DNA of 64,000 nucleotides from an uncultured Spirochaetaceae bacterium (GTDB lineage Bacteria > Spirochaetota > Spirochaetia > SZUA-6 > RPPD01), in contig CAZEPL010000003.1 of assembly GCA_964514135.1 (NCBI GenBank), forward strand, positions 6,549 through 70,548, read 5' to 3'. Numbering within the stretch: position 1 is the stretch's first letter; every line of letters begins with the position of its first letter. Below are positions 11,294-61,326 of this stretch, in pieces. The translations under genes and the position numbers were made by a program. The notes beneath the pieces are model-generated. The model was given only the letters and a program-made list of their open reading frames with translations. It made no database searches and was not told the DNA's origin.

Positions 11294-11322
11294 GGATGTG
11301 ATAGCATTAACTTCATTTCAAT

Positions 11323-11781
11323 TTAATACATCATATTGATTACAATATGCTGCTCTAATTCCGAAACCACAATTGAGGCATCTTTAAAGGAGGGGGCACT
11401 CATAAAGCCCATGGCGTCATTGGAAAAACCATATCCTTCGAGTGGTATTCCAAAAAGGCCTTTGTCCATAGAGCCGTTGCTGTTTTCATCATGTAATAAA
11501 CACACGGCATAGGTGCCTGACTGGGCAAGATTAAAAACAGCCTGCGCTTTTCCATTCTTGATGGAGACTGCCGCTTTATCAATGGCTTTTTCGGCGTCTT
11601 CCGGGAAACCCGCTTCGCTGTTATACAGGGCAAGCAATACTTTTCCCTTGTCATTTCGCAGCCCCTTTATGGTTACATGCAGAGTGCTTGCTTCCTGCTC
11701 AGCCCAAAGCGTAACTAAAAAACATATGGTTATCAGTAAAATTATTATTCGTTTCACTATTACTCCTATCAGCGGTTTCAT
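11323..11781 (-). CDS. DUF2141 family protein (copy A)
   Basis: A signal peptide is followed by LHVTIKGLRNDKGKVLLALYNSEAGFPED...GIPLEGYGFSN, which is the DUF2141 signature. Confidence 0.7.
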   Translation of the reverse strand: MKPLIGVIVKRIIILLITICFLVTLWAEQEASTLHVTIKGLRNDKGKVLLALYNSEAGFPEDAEKAIDKAAVSIKNGKAQAVFNLAQSGTYAVCLLHDENSNGSMDKGLFGIPLEGYGFSNDAMGFMSAPSFKDASIVVSELEQHIVINMMY

Positions 11782-12160
11782 TTATTATTAAACACCGCTC
11801 TCTTTCTAAAATGTCACCTGTGCTCTTTTTTTTATTATACTTCATAATTATAACACTAGTTTACTTTGAATTCTTTCTTATCTTTACAGCACAGTATCTG
11901 AATAAGATCTCTGCTGCACTTGGTAACCGCCGGTACTGCTCCGCCGGGCTGCACCCATTGGCCGGTCATATAAAAACCTTTTAGCCCCGGCAGGGTCCTC
12001 TCATACTGCTTGCCGAAGTTTTCCGGTGTAAACAACCAACCCTCAAATGATCCCTGCCGGTTACCTGTATACTTATAGGTGGTCATGGGAGTTGCGATAT
12101 CTACCACTTCAATTTTAGCTTTAATCCCCGGATAACGCGTTTCCAGATAATCCACAATAT
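11323..12160 (-). repeat. Direct repeat copy A (~830 bp; DUF2141 gene plus oxidoreductase 3' fragment)
   Basis: This segment aligns base-for-base with 14789-15540 at roughly 90% identity by eye. Confidence 0.8.
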
Positions 12161-12700
12161 CTCTTTTTATACTCTCTTTTTCCTTATTATACGCAATGCG
12201 GTTTTTTGATAATTTTTACCAAAAAGAAAATGAAGTCGGGAATAACACAGTAACTAAACTCTTGCTACCGGTTTGTAAAGAAGCATAAAAAGCATAGTTC
12301 TTTACCCACAATCCATCAACATTAAAACTGCCGATTTTAATTGACTTAACAAGGAGGTGAATATCCGTATGCGTAACGGCCTTATATTCAGATCTCAGCC
12401 CCAAAGAAATCATCATCAAGGATCACCACAACTTTGCATTTTTGTAACGCTTGTTTATTTTTTTATTTATAAACTTCCCATCCAGCATATTATAAATAGT
12501 TGCATAACCGTCCGCAGCGCTTATTATAAGGTCCGCATGAGCCTGTATTCCGTTCTCCAGCTCAATTCCCACTGCCCGCCTTTTCTTGAGTAATATCTTA
12601 TTTACTTTACAGTTATAGTTAATTTTTGCTCCCATAGCTTTACATTTCGACTCTAATACCCTGGCAAGAAGTCTCGCCCAAGCCTTGCGGCTTGCCCGTT
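11856..12700 (-). pseudogene. Decayed phytoene-desaturase-family (CrtI-like) FAD oxidoreductase
   Basis: Three consecutive minus-strand ORF pieces are frameshifted: 12423-12700 (AMGAKINYNCKVNKILLKKRRAVGIELENG...ADLIISAADG), 12216-12419 and 11856-12155 (C-terminal YTGN...PGGAVP). The N-terminal Rossmann part is missing. Confidence 0.55.
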
Positions 12701-13016
12701 GTGTCACTATAACGGATTCACCCCCTGCTTCCGCCTGAGCGCGCGCGGCGCTACCGCCCCATCCGTACCACTTCTCCGCAGCTCTCAACTTGAGTGCCGG
12801 ACGCTTCTTCCACGTGCAGCGGCTTCTTGAGGAATAGACGCCATACCGCCGCACCACGTGCTTGCCCTTTGGCGGAATATGCAGCGTAAGCTGCGCGATG
12901 AAATCCAAGCCGTAAAAGTACCTGTCCTCGCCCCGAAGAAGTAGCAAATCACTTTTAAAGGATACCGTAAAACTGTCAAGGGCAAAAAATGAGGGTGAAG
13001 CTTTAAGGCAAATCAC
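12700..13016 (-). mobile_element. IS91-family transposase C-terminal remnant fused in-frame to the oxidoreductase fragment
   Basis: HIPPKGKHVVRRYGVYSSRSRC matches the IS91 C-terminal motif (HVLPKGFHRIRHYG). The DNA is locally GC-rich, around 60%, against an AT-rich background. Confidence 0.55.
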
Positions 13017-13063
13017 GAACTATTAACTGTGCGATAAAAGCACTAATTTTATTTTTTAGAAGT

Positions 13064-14698
13064 TTAAAATAATTTTCTATTTAATTTTTCCGCTATGGTT
13101 TTTCCTGTTAAGAATGCATTCGGCATACCTCCGCCGTATACAGTCTGATGACCTATGAAATAAAGACTTTTTATTTTATCATAATAATCAAAATATTTAC
13201 CAGGTAAAGTACCTTTTACAAAAGTTTTTTCTTTGTCCCATGTGAATCCGCAAGACGAACCGTCTGTATTCCCTGTATATTTTTCAATTGTAAATGGAGT
13301 GCCTAATTCGCATACTTCTATCTTTGATCTATTTTTGATTTCCGGAATTAATTTTTCCAGCACATCTAAAACTTGTTTTGTTATCATTTTTTTTATTTTT
13401 TCATACTCTTCGGTTTTATTTCCATTTTTAATTCCCCAGTTGTTATTCCAACCTTTTGGAGGAGAAGGCATTAGGATTAAAATATTGCTTTTATTTTCTG
13501 GAGCATGCCCGGGATTAATAAGGCATGAAGAAAACAATCCTAAACCTATATTTTTAAAATAATTTTTATCATTCAGCCTACTGGAATTTTTTATCATATA
13601 TTGAGAATAATATAAATGCTTGGCACCGTTAAAATATTTTCTAATTTTAATTCTTGAAACATTTAATCCTAAGTATAACGGAATATATGTTTCAGACATT
13701 TCCTGATTTTTTATTTTATCTAAAAATACTTCATCAATATATTCATCTCCTATAAGATTTAAAAAAACTTTTTTTAAATCCATAGCAGTTATTATATTTT
13801 TACCGTACAATTTTTTTATATTTGCTTTCTTAATTAATTCAACTCCAACAGCTTTATCATTTTCAATAATAATTTTTTTAACTTTCACAGAAGTTAATAA
13901 TTCTCCGCCAAAAGATAAATATTTTTCCTTCAATTTATTTGCTAATCCCTGGAATCCATTATATGGGTAATTTTCCATTTCAATTAAGCTTACCCATTCT
14001 GCAATAAAATAAAATAGATCAACGCCCTTATACCCCCAGTTTGAAAAAAAATCATAAGCTTCTCCATTTTCGTCCAGGTATTTTTTTAATACATCGACTG
14101 CTTTATATTTCTTGAGTTCCTTCATGACTTTCATACAGTTTTTCGGCATGATTTTTCCATAATCCATGAATTTCCTTATTTTTTTTAAACCTTTATATGA
14201 AAAAGGATTGGGGATTTTTGAAATCGCTGAATAAACATTTATTCCTTCTTCTATATGCTTATAAAAAGCAAGTATCTGATTTTTTTCTCTAACAAATAAA
14301 TCCGAAATATCTTCAAAGAATTCTTTTACAGTTCGTGGAGAAAAGTTAAAATCCTTAAAACTGAATGAACTCGAGTATTGCTTAAAATTAACTTCAGCAA
14401 TTAAATCCAATTCTTCCATAAAACCCTGGATAAAAGGAACCCCGACACTTATGACTCCGGAATCAAAAAAATAACCTTTCCTGGTGAACCCGCTTGCATG
14501 ACCACCTACTACATTGTGTTGTTCTAATATTATTACTTTTTTCTTTTTTTTAGCTAGAATGATAGCAGCGGTCAGTCCGCTTATCCCTCCGCCAATAATT
14601 AATGCTTCATATGACATATTTATCTCCTTTATAATAATTAAGATAGTTCCAGAATCACTTAGCTGTGTGATTCTTCCAAATAAACAATGCTCAATCAA
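13064..14698 (-). CDS. NAD(P)/FAD-dependent oxidoreductase, phytoene desaturase (CrtI/CrtD)-like family
   Basis: The N-terminal Rossmann motif is IIGGGISGLTAAIIL...ILEQHNVVGGHA. The C-terminus resembles the CrtI family. The DNA is very AT-rich. Confidence 0.75.
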   Translation of the reverse strand: MIEHCLFGRITQLSDSGTILIIIKEINMSYEALIIGGGISGLTAAIILAKKKKKVIILEQHNVVGGHASGFTRKGYFFDSGVISVGVPFIQGFMEELDLIAEVNFKQYSSSFSFKDFNFSPRTVKEFFEDISDLFVREKNQILAFYKHIEEGINVYSAISKIPNPFSYKGLKKIRKFMDYGKIMPKNCMKVMKELKKYKAVDVLKKYLDENGEAYDFFSNWGYKGVDLFYFIAEWVSLIEMENYPYNGFQGLANKLKEKYLSFGGELLTSVKVKKIIIENDKAVGVELIKKANIKKLYGKNIITAMDLKKVFLNLIGDEYIDEVFLDKIKNQEMSETYIPLYLGLNVSRIKIRKYFNGAKHLYYSQYMIKNSSRLNDKNYFKNIGLGLFSSCLINPGHAPENKSNILILMPSPPKGWNNNWGIKNGNKTEEYEKIKKMITKQVLDVLEKLIPEIKNRSKIEVCELGTPFTIEKYTGNTDGSSCGFTWDKEKTFVKGTLPGKYFDYYDKIKSLYFIGHQTVYGGGMPNAFLTGKTIAEKLNRKLF

Positions 14699-14788
14699 TA
14701 TTTTAACATTTTTATATAATGCATTATATGCTCAACACCTTTTTTATATACACCCGCATCTTAAGAGAGCGTGTTTAAAAATATTTTT

Positions 14789-15247
14789 TCAATATACTAT
14801 ATTAATTGTGATATAATAATCTGATCCTATAACCTCTATCGAGGCATCTTTAAAGGGGGGGGCGCTCATAAATCCTTTGGCATCATTAGAGAACCCATAC
14901 CCTTCCAGTGGAATACCAAAAAGGCCTTTATCCATGGAGCCGTTATTGTTTTCATCGTGTACTAAACACACCGCATAGGTACTGGAATGGTCAAGATTAA
15001 AAACAGCCTGCGCTTTGCCATTCTTGATGGACACTACCGCCGTATCAACGGCTTTTTCGGCGTCTTCCGGGAAACCCGCTTCACTGTTATACAGGGCAAG
15101 CAGTACTTTTCCCTTATCATTTCGCAGCCCCTCTATGGCTACATGTAGAGTGCATTCTTGTTTCTCAGCCCAAAGCGAGACTAAAAAACATATGGTTATC
15201 AGTAAAATTATTATTCGTTTCATTATTACTCCTTTTTGCGGTTTCAT
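14789..15247 (-). CDS. DUF2141 family protein (copy B, paralog)
   Basis: It is about 85% identical to copy A at protein level by eye. A C8/G8 homopolymer lies in the codons for APPF. Confidence 0.7.
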   Translation of the reverse strand: MKPQKGVIMKRIIILLITICFLVSLWAEKQECTLHVAIEGLRNDKGKVLLALYNSEAGFPEDAEKAVDTAVVSIKNGKAQAVFNLDHSSTYAVCLVHDENNNGSMDKGLFGIPLEGYGFSNDAKGFMSAPPFKDASIEVIGSDYYITINIVY

Positions 15248-15360
15248 TTATAAATAAAGCACCGCCTTATTTTCTAAAATGTCACCCGTTTTAATTTTTT
15301 TTATTATCCCTCATAATCATAATACTATTTTATTCTGAATTCTTTTTTATCTTTATGGCA

Positions 15361-15540
15361 CAGTAATTGAATAAGATCTCTGCTGCACTTGGCAACCGCC
15401 GGCACACCTCCCCCCGGCTGCACCCACTGTCCGGTCATATAAAAATCTTTTAGTCCCGGCAATCTTTTTTCATACTGCTTACCAAAGTTTTCCGGTGTAA
15501 ACAGCCAGCCCTCAAACGATCCCTGCCGGTTCTTTTATTA
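15361..15540 (-). pseudogene. CrtI-like oxidoreductase C-terminal remnant (second copy)
   Basis: The DNA is near-identical to 11880-12060 and encodes the ...PGGVPAVA...ILFNYCAIK-like C-terminal end. It is truncated upstream. Confidence 0.5.
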
Positions 15541-15544
15541 ATAA

Positions 15545-17344
15545 TTAATCTATTATACATATATCTGGTATTTTTTTTTCAATAAAGAATTTATAATTCG
15601 ATTGCGGATAGCCTAAGGCAAGAGCACCATGCACTTTATATTTTTTTTGAATCTGTAATAATTTTCGTAGCTTCTGTGATCTCTGGATTGCCGTTACAAT
15701 ATAGCCAGCATAACAAGTTCCAATACCCAGTGAGTGGGCAGCAAGCATGGCATTGGAAAGAGCAAGTTGCGCGTTTATTTCCGGAAGTCGAAGAGTTGGC
15801 CCGGAATAAAAAAGCAACAAACATCTGGCATTGTGCAGGAATGGATCACTGTGGTTGTTAAAATTAGATATAATAATTTCTAGTTCTTTTATAATCTTAC
15901 GCATCTCATTACCATATAAAAATACTGCAAAAAATTTATTTATTGGATTTTTTAATCCGGTATATAATTTTTTATAGTATGAAAAGATATTTTCTTTAAT
16001 GGCATTTAATACTTCGGGTTTTTGTATAACTATGTATTTTGTACTCTGTATATTATGTGCGCTGGGAGCAAGTTGAGCAGCACTGATTATATTATTAATA
16101 TCATTCTCTGAAAGGCTTTCTCCATTAAAACTACGAATAGATCGTCTGCTTTTTAAGAACTCAATAAAAATCTTGTATGAAAATAATACATTATTATGAA
16201 TAGGATGCATTTTCTTTTCTTTAAAAAAACTGTGGCTGATAGCATTTTTTGAGCAGAGAATCACGCAATGTCCACAGGAAATACATAGGTCTGTGTTTTT
16301 TAAAGAGGGTACTATACTATCATTATGTTTTTGAAAAACAGAAGCAGGACAATTGTTAAGGCAATTCATACAGGAATTACAGAGGTTTAGATTAATGGTA
16401 ATGGATAGATCATTCCTTGACTTTTTATACTTCGACTTCAGGGCCTGTAAGGAGGTATACTTTGGTTTAAAACCAAAATCTCTTTTTAATTTCTCATTGG
16501 AAGCAGTCCATCGATATTGCCAGTAGGAAAAGGATGAAACCGGAGTCTTGAATAAATTTAGCTTATAGAACAAATCACAGATTTTCATTAAAAAAGGAGT
16601 GAGTTTACTCCATTTGACTCTTCCTCCCGCAACTTGAGCCGCTTCACTTAAGTTTATCACATCATCAGGAACAAGGTTAAAAACACCTTTTATCTTATTC
16701 TTTTTTACGGCTGTATAATAGCACTCTATCATATCCTCTTCATGAAGAAACTGGTAAGCAGGATCAAATCCCTCAAACAGATAAACATTTTTCTTTTCTA
16801 AAACCCTTGAATAGTCCATGTCTACTTCCGGTCCATATAACTCACACATTCTAAAGATAATATAATCCATCTCAGGGTGAGATCTGAAAAAGGAAAGACA
16901 CAATTTCTCTACCTCAACTTTATCATGATAATAATAGTACTCTGGATTGCCCCTGTAAGGAGAGCTTTCCTTTAGAAAAAGTGGGTTATCAGGATTTGCC
17001 CCATACACAACAGTGCTGCTTGGAATAATTATCTTTTTAATTCCTGTATGTGACGAGGCATTTAAAATATTCTTTGTTCCTTCCACATTGATACTATAAG
17101 CCAATTTTTTATTCTTAAACGGCGGCATTAAAAAAGCCAGGTGAATAATTGTTTCAATATTCTCTTCTTTCAAAATTTCTTTAATCTTAAGGTTTCTAAC
17201 ATCAAATTGATAGAATTGATGGCCTAAAGGAAGAAGGACCTTTTTCATATCTATCCCTGTTATCTTTATATCAGGATCCTGTAATAATCGTGATAATAGC
17301 TTTTGGCCCATATACCCTGAAATACCCGTAATGGCCACATTCAT
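15545..17344 (-). CDS. Three-domain fusion: NAD-dependent epimerase/dehydratase-like + 2x[4Fe-4S] ferredoxin + nitroreductase
   Basis: The N-terminal Rossmann motif is VAITGISGYMGQ. The middle region has CNSCMNCLNNCP...CISCGHCVILC. The C-terminal nitroreductase-like region is RRSIRSF...APSAHNIQ. An AGGAGG RBS is present. Confidence 0.65.
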   Translation of the reverse strand: MNVAITGISGYMGQKLLSRLLQDPDIKITGIDMKKVLLPLGHQFYQFDVRNLKIKEILKEENIETIIHLAFLMPPFKNKKLAYSINVEGTKNILNASSHTGIKKIIIPSSTVVYGANPDNPLFLKESSPYRGNPEYYYYHDKVEVEKLCLSFFRSHPEMDYIIFRMCELYGPEVDMDYSRVLEKKNVYLFEGFDPAYQFLHEEDMIECYYTAVKKNKIKGVFNLVPDDVINLSEAAQVAGGRVKWSKLTPFLMKICDLFYKLNLFKTPVSSFSYWQYRWTASNEKLKRDFGFKPKYTSLQALKSKYKKSRNDLSITINLNLCNSCMNCLNNCPASVFQKHNDSIVPSLKNTDLCISCGHCVILCSKNAISHSFFKEKKMHPIHNNVLFSYKIFIEFLKSRRSIRSFNGESLSENDINNIISAAQLAPSAHNIQSTKYIVIQKPEVLNAIKENIFSYYKKLYTGLKNPINKFFAVFLYGNEMRKIIKELEIIISNFNNHSDPFLHNARCLLLFYSGPTLRLPEINAQLALSNAMLAAHSLGIGTCYAGYIVTAIQRSQKLRKLLQIQKKYKVHGALALGYPQSNYKFFIEKKIPDICIID

Positions 17345-17463
17345 ATAGATTCCTCCTTTTTGTGGAATAAAAACTGTTCTACATAACAGTTCTTTTGCGC
17401 ATAATAGGCGGCGGTTAATCCCGCAATACCTGCTCCGATTATGATAATCTTCTTTTCTTTCAC
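17341..17463 (-). pseudogene. Mini-ORF encoding only an FAD-binding Rossmann N-terminus (VKEKKIIIIGAGIAGLTAAYYA...), with its stop overlapping the start of the 599-aa gene (ATGA)
   Basis: I translated the minus strand by hand. A GTG start is followed by 38 codons. The GxGxxG fold N-terminus has no remaining body. This is either a gene remnant or a leader ORF. Confidence 0.4.
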
Positions 17464-22329: not shown

Positions 22330-22631
22330 AAAAACACTAAATTCCTTTATTTCTTTTGGCCATGAATCCCCATCTTGGGTACAAAATGTCAGAAATAATA
22401 CAGGTAAAATTAATACTATAAAAGATAATAATTTTTTCGTAACAACCTCCTTCCTTTTTATATATTAATTAATTCTTATTGATATCTCCTTGTTTTGCAA
22501 GTATGATCTTAAAGTTTATCTAGGTCAAAAGAGGAACAAATTTAAAATTGCTCTATGCTCTTTTTTTTGCATAACACTCGTACATATAGTATACTATAAA
22601 TATTAATACTTGATAGTAGCAGAGTGTAACC

Positions 22632-35964: not shown

Positions 35965-36028
35965 GAATGATTACAGTGATCAACCGTGTATAGTGTATTT
36001 CGGTGAACTATCCCAAGATATATTAAGT

Positions 36029-36150
36029 GAGGAAATTGCAAAACTCAAAATATATTAACTTAGTAAAATACTTATTCTCTATACCATAATAAGTTAGCAA
36101 TTTCCATTTTAGGAGCTTCTTGCAAAAATAACATTTTTGCAAGAAGCTCA
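36029..36150 (+). repeat. MITE-like element copy A: 9-bp TIRs (GGAAATTGC...GCAATTTCC) plus an adjacent 16-bp stem hairpin
   Basis: It aligns with 39764-39840 and with the reverse complement of 61095-61214. Confidence 0.75.
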
Positions 36151-36186
36151 GAGAATAAGAAATAAACACTCACTTAAACCGGCGAA

Positions 36187-39624: not shown

Positions 39625-39763
39625 TTTTTTGGTAGCACATTAAGATTTTTCTTGATCTTTCTTATTCATGTATTGACTAGGATTTTAAGTCTATCTATCA
39701 TTTTAAATATAATGGAGGTGTTATAATGAAAAACCCTGAAAAAAAATGTATTCTTATTTTAGC

Positions 39764-39840
39764 GAGGAAATTGCAAAACTCAAAATATATTAAGTTAGTA
39801 AAATACTTATTCTTTATACCATAATAATTTAGCAATTTCC
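39764..39840 (+). repeat. MITE-like element copy B (core with both TIRs, no hairpin)
   Basis: It aligns with the 36029-36105 core. Confidence 0.7.
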
Positions 39841-39930
39841 TCTACTGTTAATTAAATTATACAATTGCTCAATATTATAATTTCTTCTATTATATCCTCT
39901 AACGCTACGTAAAGAGGAGGAACAAACAAG

Positions 39931-54974: not shown

Positions 54975-55200
54975 GTAAAAATCTTTAGCTCAATATATAG
55001 CAAGGTGTCCCATATCTCAGGAGAAAATTGGATATGAACCCTTTCATGGAAAGGATTTTGGAGCACTCCCCACATGCTGTTAGGTTAGCATCTTCCGGAT
55101 GGGAAAATAAGCTAAAAGCAACCTGTGCTCGATTAATCAAGAAGGTCTATGGCACTGATCATTTGGTTTGACCAAGCTGTGGCTCTGAATTGAAGAATAA
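54975..55200 (+). mobile_element. IS91-family remnant fragment, sharing ~90 bp with 59130-59215
   Basis: The direct repeat is ATCTTTAGCTCAATATATAGCAA...ATGAACCCTTTCATGGAAAGGATTTT. Copy 2 is contiguous with a HUH transposase fragment. Confidence 0.35.
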
Positions 55201-55264: not shown

Positions 55265-57418
55265 TTACCCCAAACCTAATAAGCTTCCTCCCTGATAAAC
55301 AATTAAAGCCATAATATATGCTAATGCAGTTGTATATATCATTTGGAACAGAACTTCTTTTAAACTTTTTGTCTCTTTATAAAACACTACCATTGCTGCA
55401 ATACAGGGAAAGTAAAGCAGAACAAAAATCATTAAAGAAAATGCTATTAAAGGAGAATATGCTATATCATTTCGTAATTTATCCCTTAATGTTTCTGATT
55501 CTTCATCAGCTTCTCCTACACTATAAACTGTGCCAAGTGTTGAAACTATTACTTCTTTGGCTGCAAATCCGGCAAATAGGCCTATCCCTAATCTCCAGTC
55601 AAACCCAAGAGGTTTAATTACAGGCTCTATTGCTTTTCCAATCCTTCCTGCAAAACTATATGACAAATCTTCTGTTGCCCTTTCATTTTCAAAATCTTCA
55701 ATCTTATTTTCTTTAATTTCTTCTATTTGATTACTTGTCTCTATTCCATTTATAAGCTTATAATAATCTTTTGAATATGAAGTAACTTTTGGAAAACTCA
55801 TTAATACCCACATAATAATTGAAACTGCAAGTATTATTGTACCGGCCTTTTTTAAATATAACTTTCCCTTTTCCCACATATGAATTAGAATACCTTTAAT
55901 AGTAGGAAGATGATAAGGCGGTAGTTCCATTACAAAAGGAGCAGACTCACCACGAAATCTAACCTTTGAAAATATTTTTGCCATAGCAACTGCAATAACT
56001 ATCCCTAAGATATATATTATAAATATAATATTCCCTGCAGCTTCTTTAGGAAAGAAAGCACCGGCAAAAAGTACATATACAGGCAATCTTGCTCCACAGC
56101 TCATAAATGTATTCACATGCATTGTAACCAGACGATCTCTTTTGCTTTCAAGTATTCGGCATCCCATGTATGCAGGTATTGTACAACCAAATCCTATAAG
56201 CATTGGAATAAATGATTTACCATGCAGTCCAAATTTATGCATGATCCTGTCCATAATAAACGCTGCTCTCGACATATATCCTGAATCTTCTAAGATAGCA
56301 ATTGCAATAAATAAAATTAGTATATTGGGAAGAAATACTAATACACCACCAACACCTCCTATTATCCCATCAACAATTAATGAATTGATTATGCCTTCAG
56401 GTATTACATTTCCTATAAGTTCTCCAAACCATCCAAAAAAGCTTTCTATCCACTCCATCGGTTTTTCTGCTAAAGTAAAAGTCATTTTAAATATAAGCCA
56501 CATGAAAAAAGCAAAGATGGGTAGTCCTAATATTCTATTGGTTAATATCTTATCTATTTTATCTGAAACATCTAATTTATGTCTTTCAAGCTGCCTGGCA
56601 GATTCTTTTACTACTCCTTTAATAAATCCATATCTCATGTCAACAATACGGCCTTCTACATCCTCACCAAAAATCATCTCCAAATGTTTTGTGCTTTCTT
56701 CGATTTGATATATTGCTTCTTGTTCAATAGAAGAGCCTTTGATATGCTCTAATTCTTCTTTGTCGTTTTCTAATAGCTTTATGCTAATATATCTGGCAGA
56801 TACTTTTTGCGTAAGACTTTTATCTTTTTTAATTATTTCTAACAATTTTTCTAATTCATTCTCTATTTCCTTTCCAAAATTTACTTGCACAGGCTTTATC
56901 TTTGACTCCCCTGTAGCAACCGTTATTATTTTCTCAAATAAAGCTTCAATTCCCTCTTTTTTATGGCCTACCGTAAAAACTATTTCACAGCCTATTAATC
57001 TAGAGAACAGATTTTCATCCAATCTTAAACCTTTTTTCTTGGCAATATCACTCATATTAAGACATAATATGAATGGTATACCCAATTCTGCCAATTGAGT
57101 AGCCAAATATAGATTTCTTTGAAGATTTGAAGAATCAATTATATCAACAACAACATCTGGTCTTTCTTCTATGAGAAATTTTCTTGCTACTACTTCATCA
57201 AGAGAATATGCTGTAAGGCTGTAAGTACCCGGAAGATCTACCACCTTTATTTTGTAATCCTTATAATTACATTTTCCTTCTTTTTTCTCCACAGTTACAC
57301 CTGGATAATTTCCTACATGCTGTCTCGCTCCGGTAAGAGCATTAAAAATAGTTGTTTTCCCTGAATTGGGATTACCAGCCAACGCTATTGTAATCTCGTT
57401 TTTATTGTTCTGACCCAA
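55265..57418 (-). CDS. feoB: Ferrous iron transporter B
   Basis: The G-domain is IALAGNPNSGKTTIFNALTG, followed by a polytopic membrane domain. The DNA is very AT-rich. Confidence 0.9.
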   Translation of the reverse strand: MGQNNKNEITIALAGNPNSGKTTIFNALTGARQHVGNYPGVTVEKKEGKCNYKDYKIKVVDLPGTYSLTAYSLDEVVARKFLIEERPDVVVDIIDSSNLQRNLYLATQLAELGIPFILCLNMSDIAKKKGLRLDENLFSRLIGCEIVFTVGHKKEGIEALFEKIITVATGESKIKPVQVNFGKEIENELEKLLEIIKKDKSLTQKVSARYISIKLLENDKEELEHIKGSSIEQEAIYQIEESTKHLEMIFGEDVEGRIVDMRYGFIKGVVKESARQLERHKLDVSDKIDKILTNRILGLPIFAFFMWLIFKMTFTLAEKPMEWIESFFGWFGELIGNVIPEGIINSLIVDGIIGGVGGVLVFLPNILILFIAIAILEDSGYMSRAAFIMDRIMHKFGLHGKSFIPMLIGFGCTIPAYMGCRILESKRDRLVTMHVNTFMSCGARLPVYVLFAGAFFPKEAAGNIIFIIYILGIVIAVAMAKIFSKVRFRGESAPFVMELPPYHLPTIKGILIHMWEKGKLYLKKAGTIILAVSIIMWVLMSFPKVTSYSKDYYKLINGIETSNQIEEIKENKIEDFENERATEDLSYSFAGRIGKAIEPVIKPLGFDWRLGIGLFAGFAAKEVIVSTLGTVYSVGEADEESETLRDKLRNDIAYSPLIAFSLMIFVLLYFPCIAAMVVFYKETKSLKEVLFQMIYTTALAYIMALIVYQGGSLLGLG

Positions 57419-57429
57419 AATGTCCTCCT

Positions 57430-57663
57430 TTAAATAACAATTATTTTGTGAGCCATACCATGACCAATGGCAATTTTAGAACCCTTTATTTTTATCATTA
57501 CTGGTCCCGGATGGCCCGAACTTATAAGTTCAATTTTTTCTCCTGGAATAAAACCCATCTCTTTCATCCTGTTGACAAACCCATACCCTCCATGTATTTC
57601 AACAATAGTTAGATTTTGCCCTTGGTGCATCATATATAGAGGGGCACTGTGTTTTTCTGTCAA
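57430..57663 (-). CDS. feoA: FeoA-family protein
   Basis: It is a small SH3-like FeoA protein (GEKIELIS...PVMIKIKGSKIAI). Confidence 0.7.
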   Translation of the reverse strand: MTEKHSAPLYMMHQGQNLTIVEIHGGYGFVNRMKEMGFIPGEKIELISSGHPGPVMIKIKGSKIAIGHGMAHKIIVI

Positions 57664-57896
57664 TCTTTAACCTCCACTATAATATTGATTGCTTCTTCTT
57701 TTCTTAATGAGAGATGATAGTCCTGGATAAGTAAATCAATCGGATCGCCTAATGGTGCTTTCTTCTTAACTTCAATCTCTGAACCAGCAATTACACCCAT
57801 ATCCATAATTCTTCTCTTTAAAATTGGCTTTCCCATAATGCTTTTAACCCTTCCTTTTTCACCTGGCTTAAGCTGGCTTAATTTCTTTTCTATCAT
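57660..57896 (-). CDS. feoA: FeoA-family protein
   Basis: LKPGEKGRVKSI...GDPIDLLIQDYHLSLRKEEA is FeoA-like. It overlaps its neighbour by 4 nt. Confidence 0.7.
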   Translation of the reverse strand: MIEKKLSQLKPGEKGRVKSIMGKPILKRRIMDMGVIAGSEIEVKKKAPLGDPIDLLIQDYHLSLRKEEAINIIVEVKD

Positions 57897-57941
57897 AATT
57901 ATCTACCTCCGGTATTATTAATGACTATTTGCAATTCTTAG

Positions 57942-58673
57942 CTAATTCACAACTTCAATAATTATTAATTCAGCTTCCTTTTTTCTTAAAGAAAGATGGT
58001 AGCCTTTAATATAAATATCAATTGGATCTCCAAGAGGGGCTACCTTTTCTACCATAATAACTTCATTAGGAATTAACCCCATACTTAAAAGCCTTCGCTT
58101 TATTTCTCTATCTCCTTCAATTCTTTTGATAATTCCTTTTTCGTTTTTTTCTAAGTTTGATAATTTTTTAATATTAGTTACTTCTAATTTCTTATCTATA
58201 TTTTCTTTTAAATATTTTGAAAAATTATCTATAAACTTACTATCAGCATCTATCTGCTTAATATATTTCATAAAACATACAATATTATTATATGTTTCTT
58301 CATGAATATAATGTTCTATATTACATGCGTCTTTCTTAGATATTTCTTCATCCGTTAGTAATATTTTTGAAAAAAAAGTAACAAGATTTTGGTGCTTTTC
58401 ATATATTCTTCTTGCTACGATTGTACCGGTTTTGGTTAATTCAATATGTTCAAATTTTTCATGTACAATTAGGTTCTTTTTTAATAAAACTTTTATTGCA
58501 TTGTTTATTGACGACACCTTATAGTTAAAAAATTCCATTAAATCTTTTACCCTAACGATTTTTTTCTTTAAGCTAATTATCCAGATAGCTTCCAGATAAT
58601 CTTCCATACTTTGTGATAATTCATACATATAGTCTCTCCTATAAAATATAGACTTACCTATATTTAATAGCAA
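57942..58673 (-). CDS. DtxR/MntR-family metal-dependent regulator with a C-terminal FeoA domain
   Basis: The N-terminal DtxR HTH is SQSMEDYLEAIW. The C-terminal FeoA-like domain is GLIPNEVIMVEKVAPLGDPIDIYIKGYHLSLRKKEA. Confidence 0.7.
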   Translation of the reverse strand: MLLNIGKSIFYRRDYMYELSQSMEDYLEAIWIISLKKKIVRVKDLMEFFNYKVSSINNAIKVLLKKNLIVHEKFEHIELTKTGTIVARRIYEKHQNLVTFFSKILLTDEEISKKDACNIEHYIHEETYNNIVCFMKYIKQIDADSKFIDNFSKYLKENIDKKLEVTNIKKLSNLEKNEKGIIKRIEGDREIKRRLLSMGLIPNEVIMVEKVAPLGDPIDIYIKGYHLSLRKKEAELIIIEVVN

Positions 58674-58899: not shown

Positions 58900-59250
58900 T
58901 TTTATAGAATTTTTAACGATGTTTTTCGCATGAAAATAGTTACAGGTCTTGTACTCTCCTATCAGACAGCAGGAGATTTCGCCAGGTGGAATCCACATTA
59001 TCATTGACTTCTTCTAGAAGGTAGTTTTGATGCGGAAGGCAATTTTGAAGAACTGATAAATGAGAATTTTGCTAATAAATTACTATCCTGGAAGAATTCA
59101 GGATTTTCAATTGATAACTCTGTAAGAATCTTTAGCTCAATATATAGCAATGCGTCCCATATCTCTGGAGAAGATTAGATATGAACCCTTTCATGGAAAG
59201 GATTTTAGAGCACTCACCTTTGGGAACTATGCGCAATTAACTCTAAGGAG
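58900..59250 (+). mobile_element. IS91-family transposase remnant (HUH region) with an in-frame stop
   Basis: The sequence LSYQTAGDFARWNPHYH*LLLEGSFDAEGNF matches the IS91 HUH block. It is followed by the ~90-bp segment shared with 54975-55065. Confidence 0.5.
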
Positions 59251-61094: not shown

Positions 61095-61214
61095 ATATTA
61101 AATGAGTTTCTTGCAAAAATAACATTTTTGCAAGAAACTCCTAAAATGGAAATTGCTAAATTATTATGGTATAAAGAATTAGTATTTTACTAACTTAATA
61201 TATTTTGAGTTTTG
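61095..61214 (-). repeat. MITE-like element copy C (inverted orientation; core plus hairpin)
   Basis: Its reverse complement matches 36029-36150 at about 90% by eye. Confidence 0.75.
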
Positions 61215-61326
61215 CAATTTCCTCAAATAATAAGAATTTACCATTTACTCCCGGGCTGCTCATGATTTGGCCGAATCCGCCACAATCCATTTTATCGCAA
61301 ATATAAAAATATTCCGGTCTTTTTCT

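Follow-up and report, generated by a model that had tools for sequence, protein, structure and literature searches.

The window analysed here, 64,000 nucleotides of DNA from an uncultured Spirochaetaceae bacterium, contains three closely similar intergenic stretches, which raises the question of whether these are copies of a mobile element or parts of a module that serves the neighbouring genes. A sequence-only reading had left both answers open, proposing a miniature transposable element with inverted repeats (MITE) or a REP-like regulatory or terminator module on the basis of a 75-bp core followed by a hairpin. Our analysis makes it very probable that the stretches are copies of a non-autonomous DNA transposon of 121 bp, a MITE that inserts precisely into AT-rich intergenic DNA, duplicates 4 bp of its target and is presumably moved in trans by a transposase.

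A search of the window with a 28-mer from the core revealed exact matches at 36031 (+), 39766 (+) and 61195 (-), with none expected in shuffled sequence, and so confirmed the three copies. A repeat search of the window paired positions 36021-36157 with 61096-61232 (137 nt, 90% identity) and positions 39764-39840 with 61148-61224 (77 nt, 99% identity). The 75-nt core is limited by GGAAATTGC and GCAATTTCC. Copies A and C run on past the core via ATTTTAG to a palindrome with 17-bp arms, which forms a hairpin in these two copies and is absent from copy B. The features of the three copies are as follows.

36029-36149, + strand: copy A, full-length 121-bp MITE, 95% identical to the family consensus
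36029-36044, + strand: left terminal repeat of copy A, GAGGAAATTGCAAAAC
36097-36105, + strand: internal inverted copy of the left end in copy A, GCAATTTCC, which pairs with 36031-36039
36113-36149, + strand: terminal palindrome of copy A with 17-bp arms and loop AAC (36130-36132); the element ends on the right with the outer arm
39764-39842, + strand: copy B, 79 nt, without the palindrome; consensus positions 1-77 are matched at 100%
61104-61224, - strand: copy C, full-length 121-bp MITE with loop GTT (61121-61123) and the compensated stem variant GAGTTTC...GAAACTC
61225-61228, - strand: left target-site duplication of copy C, ATTT in element orientation
61100-61103, - strand: right target-site duplication of copy C, ATTT in element orientation

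These limits differ from those first proposed. Copy C, originally placed at 61095-61214, occupies 61104-61224, and the unit defined by the flanking duplications is not the 75-bp core but a stretch of 121 bp (36029-36149 and 61104-61224). The 9-bp sequences GGAAATTGC and GCAATTTCC, previously taken for terminal inverted repeats, are the left end and its internal inverted copy, and the hairpin, previously thought to follow the element, is the element's own right terminus. Its stem is perfect, as described, but comprises 17 rather than 16 bp (GAGCTTCTTGCAAAAAT / ATTTTTGCAAGAAGCTC; arms at 36113-36129/36133-36149 and 61104-61120/61124-61140), and the loop AAC given for both hairpins holds for copy A, whereas copy C has GTT.

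The 121-bp unit is composed of GAGGAAATTGC, 57 nt, GCAATTTCC, ATTTTAG and the 17-bp-stem palindrome as its right terminus, with the tips 5'-GAGGAAATTGCAAAAC ... ATTTTTGCAAGAAGCTC-3'. Similarity between copies begins with GAGG and halts directly past the outer arm of the palindrome (...GAAGCTC). The family consensus is GAGGAAATTGCAAAACTCAAAATATATTAAGTTAGTAAAATACTTATTCTTTATACCATAATAAGTTAGCAATTTCCATTTTAGGAGCTTCTTGCAAAAATGTTATTTTTGCAAGAAGCTC. An alignment of the left tip GAGGAAATTGCAAAAC with the reverse-complemented right tip (GAGCTTCTTGCAAAAA) showed 12 of 16 matching positions, with GAG and TTGCAAAA common to both; the terminal repeats are thus imperfect, and many MITEs have longer ones. At each end TTGCAA is found 7 nt from the tip. 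The end motif GAG-N4-TTGCAAAA is found four times per element: two motifs sit at the tips and point outward, and the internal ones are formed by the inverted GCAATTTCC and by the palindrome's inner arm. The 121 bp contain no conserved ORF, and reading frames vary among copies.

Copy A lies between the convergent 3' ends of a gene of 164/178 aa (stop 35964) and a DnaJ-domain gene (stop 36187), and the same filled site is also present in five independent metagenome contigs. Its flanks, AAGT (36025-36028) and AGAG (36150-36153), form no intact duplication. In one short contig (L091, 1211-1331) the right flank of copy A is joined to another left flank, which could be due to recombination between copies or to chimeric assembly. 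Copy C is located downstream of a GntR/aminotransferase regulator gene (distance 102 nt) and upstream of a gene of 337 aa (distance 58 nt). Copy B has no flanking duplication and ends at GCAATTTCCTC; it shares this end, or a close variant of it, with a copy in contig L124, and has either arisen by 3' truncation or represents a left-end/left-end variant. The Logan contigs L001 and L006 both terminate at window position 39811, within copy B. An ORF of 32 aa (MKNPEKKCILILARKLQNSKYIKLVKYLFFIP; window 39727-39825 and L002 4236-4334) with a good ribosome-binding site enters copy B, and metagenome annotations list it as a gene; the MITE encodes the last 20 residues at its C terminus, and the ORF is probably spurious or very young. 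The element itself was rejected as a coding sequence, since the frame of this ORF differs in other copies.

To determine the size of the family, metagenomes were scanned with an exact 20-mer from the left end, which matched at least 118 stretches; copies were extracted and then de-duplicated by their flanks. Among the matches listed, full-length copies occupy 93 distinct sites, or 90 once near-identical flanks are merged. Their mean identity to the consensus is 97.4% among the matches listed. In this set the conservation of the left end is inflated because the copies were gathered by an exact left-end 20-mer. The family therefore comprises at least 90 distinct insertion sites rather than three, which, together with the conserved ends and flanking duplications, bears out the MITE proposal. 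Similarity through a duplicated gene UTR had been named as a possible objection and is contradicted by the unrelated gene contexts of the copies; a lack of conserved terminal repeats had been named as another, and the ends are kept across subfamilies with different interiors (L060, L129).

A scan of a genome collection for pairs of the 9-mers (one genome per species), in which the matches listed were mostly chance matches, detected at least six copies and a fragment in the MAG 'Spirochaetales bacterium Zod_Metabat.1377'. Diagnostic substitutions that are specific to the MAG (ACTAATT, CATATTAAT) suggest that the element was amplified separately in different host lineages. Contigs identical to the window were present in several JGI and Logan samples, and some of them stop within the element, as is to be expected of repeats. 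Viral contigs scanned with both end motifs showed nothing beyond chance matches on single strands, a blastn search of a plasmid collection detected no match to the family, and an exact string search of the literature returned only unrelated primers and no record of the family.

The flanks of the copies revealed how the element inserts. A perfect 4-bp direct repeat flanks 72 of the 93 full-length copies among the matches listed, and three of four positions match in 9 more. When left flanks were paired with the right flanks of other copies, perfect 4-bp matches occurred in 2.3% (binomial P ~1e-98). Duplication lengths of 2, 3, 5 and 6 fail and only 4 works; copy A and about 13% of the copies among the matches listed have no recognisable duplication. 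The duplicated tetramers vary (AATA, AATT, TATT, ATTA, TATA, AGCT and others) and consequently represent target sequence, not part of the element. A target-site duplication had been anticipated with TA as an example: the duplication is there, but it is a variable, AT-rich stretch of 4 bp and not TA. Reconstruction of the target from the sites among the matches listed gave the symmetric consensus T-AATT-A, with the central tetramer duplicated. The flanks contain 78% A+T compared to 60% overall, and all 93 sites among the matches listed are intergenic; genic insertions have presumably been removed by selection.

Direct comparison of filled and empty sites was possible for two loci, the first of which lies in the window.

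22463-22466, no strand assigned: empty target site with a single TATT; the orthologous position in contig L097 (8636-8756) holds a 121-bp copy with TATT on both sides

At this locus the filled contig L097 reads ...ATATATT-(121 bp)-TATTAATT... and the empty window ...ATATATTAATT... at 22463-22466. The longer alignment compares ...TTTTATATATT-(121 bp)-TATTAATTAATTC... in L097 with ...TTTTATATATTAATTAATTC... in the window, and the flanks are about 96% identical. In the second pair, the copy is present in L206, and L168 has the empty site with one AACT. Both pairs show precise insertion with a 4-bp duplication. Close relatives thus differ in filled and empty sites, and the family has been recently active. 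A third candidate empty site, also between L168 and L206, lies in a diverged stretch and was left out of the evidence. The alignment of the window with L097 revealed a further difference: window segments 11322-12062 and 14788-15531 are paralogous (83-86% identical, 3.47 kb apart), and L097 is missing about 4 kb there (window 12646-17382 vs L097 3167-3783), which indicates a lineage-specific duplication or indel at the paralogous segments.

The variation of the element's right end was analysed across the copies. The stem of copy C differs from that of copy A by one compensated C-G to T-A change. Among the matches listed, changes on both sides were found in 7 of the 17 hairpin pairs (12 cells), compared to 0.7 in shuffles, and none of 500 shuffles reached that number. 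All compensated changes are in the outer 8 bp, and changes within the inner TTGCAAAAAT are rare and uncompensated. The helix formed by GCAATTTCC with the left end (helix 1) is 99.5% paired and shows no covariation. The loop reads GTT in 56, AAC in 16, ATT in 9 and AAT in 6 of the copies among the matches listed. Short-read assemblies can swap internal variants between copies of a multi-copy repeat, a risk that is limited for the loop because it lies within 20 nt of unique flank. Both loop orientations are found on every subfamily background and even at the same orthologous site, where the loop is GTT in L207 and AAC in L189, L203 and L211.

Since a flipped palindrome is its own reverse complement, the loop flips are explained most simply by inversion or a switch of template between the two 17-bp arms, along with correction templated by the hairpin. 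This process is quasipalindrome mutagenesis as known from E. coli. Selection for a foldable end in transposing copies is a possible alternative. The palindrome is presumably needed for mobility or kept symmetric by hairpin-templated copying, and either would explain the compensated stem changes. A bolder proposal, which we hold to be rather improbable, is that the right end is a self-templating terminal palindrome and that the element moves or is copied through a hairpin step (single-stranded, cruciform or by hairpin-primed synthesis). Such a step would restore perfect symmetry of the arms and flip the loop between GTT and AAC, resembling the flip/flop of parvovirus terminal repeats. If true, hairpin-using transposition would be a chemistry not described for MITEs that make target duplications in bacteria. 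The loop flips and compensated arms also constitute a natural data set on the upkeep of short perfect palindromes in bacterial genomes.

A terminal hairpin that is conserved and perfectly paired and whose changes are compensated would also be expected of a REP/BIME-like or IS200/IS605-type element, moved as single-stranded DNA by a hairpin-recognising HUH transposase (Y1 or RAYT). No DDE-type transposase was seen nearby, and decayed fragments of an IS91-family (HUH, Y2) transposase occur in the same genomes, both of which would suit such an origin. REP/BIME and IS200/IS605-type elements, however, insert beside a fixed target of 4-5 nt without duplicating it, whereas a variable 4-bp duplication flanks 77% of the copies among the matches listed and the empty sites carry it as a single copy. 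In addition, the hairpin is terminal rather than subterminal, and it is AT-rich, unlike REP sequences. The probability of this origin is therefore close to negligible.

The IS91-like fragments were found in the window as a 97-nt direct repeat (58930-59218 and 54975-55071, 92% identical) that flanks a dtxR-feoA-feoA-feoB operon (55265-58673, -). Judging by eye from their motifs, these repeats are putative remnants of an IS91-family (Y2, rolling-circle) transposase gene; they read ...LSYQTAGDFARWNPHYH-stop-LLLEGSFDAEGNF...LLSWKNSGFSIDNSVRIF... and contain in-frame stops. L101 (6969-7662) has a longer copy that is likewise broken, and further fragments were detected in L129, L115 and L141.

The hairpins could instead belong to a cis-acting RNA module (a 3'-UTR stabiliser or terminator, or a small RNA gene) that is kept for its two stem-loops and was spread by duplication rather than as a transposon. 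The predicted fold is strong (-37 to -38 kcal/mol, z ~-7.3), the compensatory double changes fit this view, and all three window copies sit downstream of a co-oriented gene. The hairpin of copy C also passes a lax terminator scan, albeit only because of its flank, and copy A has a hairpin without a T tail. Across the 93 sites among the matches listed, the neighbouring genes show no orientation bias (co-oriented 18, anti-oriented 17, divergent 30, convergent 15), and a T-rich tail follows the hairpin in 25 of 93 copies, compared to 20 of 93 for the control, the equally AT-rich left flank read outward. Just 5 of the 17 stem pairs are G-C, so that with no excess of T tails and no orientation bias the hairpin fails as an intrinsic terminator. 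Both strands fold equally. Rfam gave no hits for the window at gathering thresholds; below threshold, only miRNA-type hairpin matches were returned (at most 29 bits against thresholds of 40-160), which amounts to generic hairpin noise. Finally, an RNA module leaves the flanking duplications and the empty sites unexplained. We consider such a module very unlikely, and the regulatory or terminator module of the sequence-only reading is likewise not supported, given the missing inherent T-tract and the balance of co-oriented and anti-oriented neighbours.

A third possibility is that the MITE has been exapted by its host as a portable promoter part, with TTGCAA, 7 nt from the tips, as a candidate outward -35 box. 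The inverted repeats of IS26 and IS257 (IS6 family) begin GGCACTGTTGCAAA..., and their TTGCAA hexamer acts as an outward -35 box; TTGCAAA lies at positions 8-14 from their tip, as it does in GAGCTTCTTGCAAA of the 121-bp family. The hexamer is equidistant from both tips here, divergent genes are the commonest setting (30 of 80 two-neighbour sites among the matches listed), and the median distance to neighbouring ORFs is about 70-80 nt (matches listed). Nevertheless, flank positions at the distance required for a 16-18-nt spacer show no enrichment of TANNNT hexamers, and the choice of AT-rich targets alone would yield an excess of divergent regions. Exaptation as a promoter part thus seems unlikely. 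Membership of the IS6 family is not supported either: IS6 elements make 8-bp duplications and move through cointegrates, and the duplication here is 4 bp. Built-in roles as terminator, promoter or RNA gene are not supported, and we infer that the element has no inherent function for the host as terminator or promoter, although individual copies may affect neighbouring genes.

The 121-bp family, a transposon by this evidence, was compared to known elements. MITEs are defined as small, non-coding, multi-copy elements with terminal inverted repeats and a 2-10-bp target duplication, overwhelmingly intergenic and dependent on an external transposase, and they are reported to be numerous in Spirochaetes (Leptospira, Sediminispirochaeta, Treponema), with an average of about 145 per genome (PMC11602168). 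The family falls within the usual length range of about 50-800 bp and is non-coding, has imperfect terminal inverted repeats and a duplication fixed at 4 bp, and occurs as dispersed polymorphic copies; size class, terminal repeats, duplication and intergenic siting are those of bacterial MITEs. In contrast to these, which carry two end motifs, it has four, owing to its perfect 17-bp palindromic right end. It is a new MITE family, ordinary in kind but with a right end that is unusual in being self-complementary.

Among well-known families, Correia elements (CREE) of Neisseria are high-copy intergenic MITEs of about 100-150 bp for which no active parent has been identified; once transcribed they can fold into hairpins, and promoter or terminator activity can come from them. 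Their terminal repeats are 26 bp long and they duplicate TA, whereas the family described here has imperfect 16-bp repeats, a 4-bp AT-rich duplication and no sequence similarity to them. Membership was rejected on duplication length and the different terminal repeats. Elements of the IS5 family (IS5 and IS427 groups) have ends that begin with GA or GG, make a 4-bp (or 2-4-bp) duplication and use short symmetric targets containing AT. The GAG start, the 4-bp duplication and the type of target are similar in the 121-bp family, but no IS5-type transposase was found here. In the ISfinder family table, GAG/GA ends with a 4-bp duplication presumably fit the IS5 family best; IS701, IS1380 and ISAzo13 also make duplications of about 4 bp. 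Assignment to IS5 is accordingly a lead, not a result.

The transposase acting in trans would be predicted to bind the GAG-N4-TTGCAAAA ends and to make 4-bp staggered cuts in the target. Among the matches listed, four types of search across about 1 Mb of related contigs detected no autonomous parent or transposase with the ends of the family, and none was seen in viral contigs; this negative is weak, because IS copies usually break short-read assemblies. Neither sharp-ended repeats of 0.3-4 kb nor GAG...CTC pairs with a 4-bp duplication in the related contigs yielded a candidate parent IS, and six-frame translations of these contigs contained no candidate with IS4/IS5-type Y-R-E-K motifs. TTGCAA-anchored inverted-repeat pairs 0.4-3.5 kb apart were merely adjacent MITEs with ordinary genes between them. 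Because the transposase was not found, we infer both mobilisation in trans and the transposase family. An 826-bp presence/absence difference between L202 (5300-6126) and L196 (1072), without recognisable end repeats, was rejected as a transposase since it holds a pair of nucleotidyltransferase and HEPN-like genes instead, by eye a toxin-antitoxin-type cassette.

The family reveals no new kind of system. The description covers the ends, duplication, target and empty sites of a transposon that is young, present in high copy number and hosted by an uncultured spirochaete lineage. It accounts for contig breaks in assemblies and offers insertion markers at strain level. The GAG-N4-TTGCAAAA ends and the 4-bp duplication can serve as bait for the responsible transposase, with the bounds GAGGAAATTGCAAAA...TTTTTGCAAGAAGCTC or close variants of them.

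Several derivatives are what in-place decay of a transposon would leave. One form of 37 nt, GAGGAAATTGTAAAAAT-GTT-ATTTTCGCAAGAAGCTC, flanked by TATT on both sides (L098/L190/L195), consists of the two ends joined and is explained by deletion between two direct TTGCAAAA repeats. One MITE is inserted within another (L104/L113), and further copies break off at various positions. The subfamilies L060 and L129 1154-1279, of which L129 carries the duplication AAGA/AAGA, have unrelated interiors and have kept the ends, the internal 9-mer and the palindrome, which marks these as the constrained parts of the element.

Two additional sequences share end motifs with the family. In L033 (2956-2991, -) a solo left end of 30 nt (AAGGAAATTGCAAAACTCAAAATATATTAA) is followed by unrelated sequence; it lies 178 nt from a full copy (L033 2657-2777), inverted relative to it, and is either a truncated copy or, possibly, the end of a longer relative. 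The Clostridia MAG RGIG3846 contains an unrelated G+C-rich repeat with the 9-mer ends GGAAATTGC...GCAATTTCC (two tandem units in L026 3939-4121; L073 1598-1673). At least three of these repeats, for which Rfam returned no match, occur in this one MAG. Each spans about 76 nt, a GCGGGCAACGCCCGC hairpin and then a T run come after it, and the repeat could represent a different MITE or RNA family with a common end motif.
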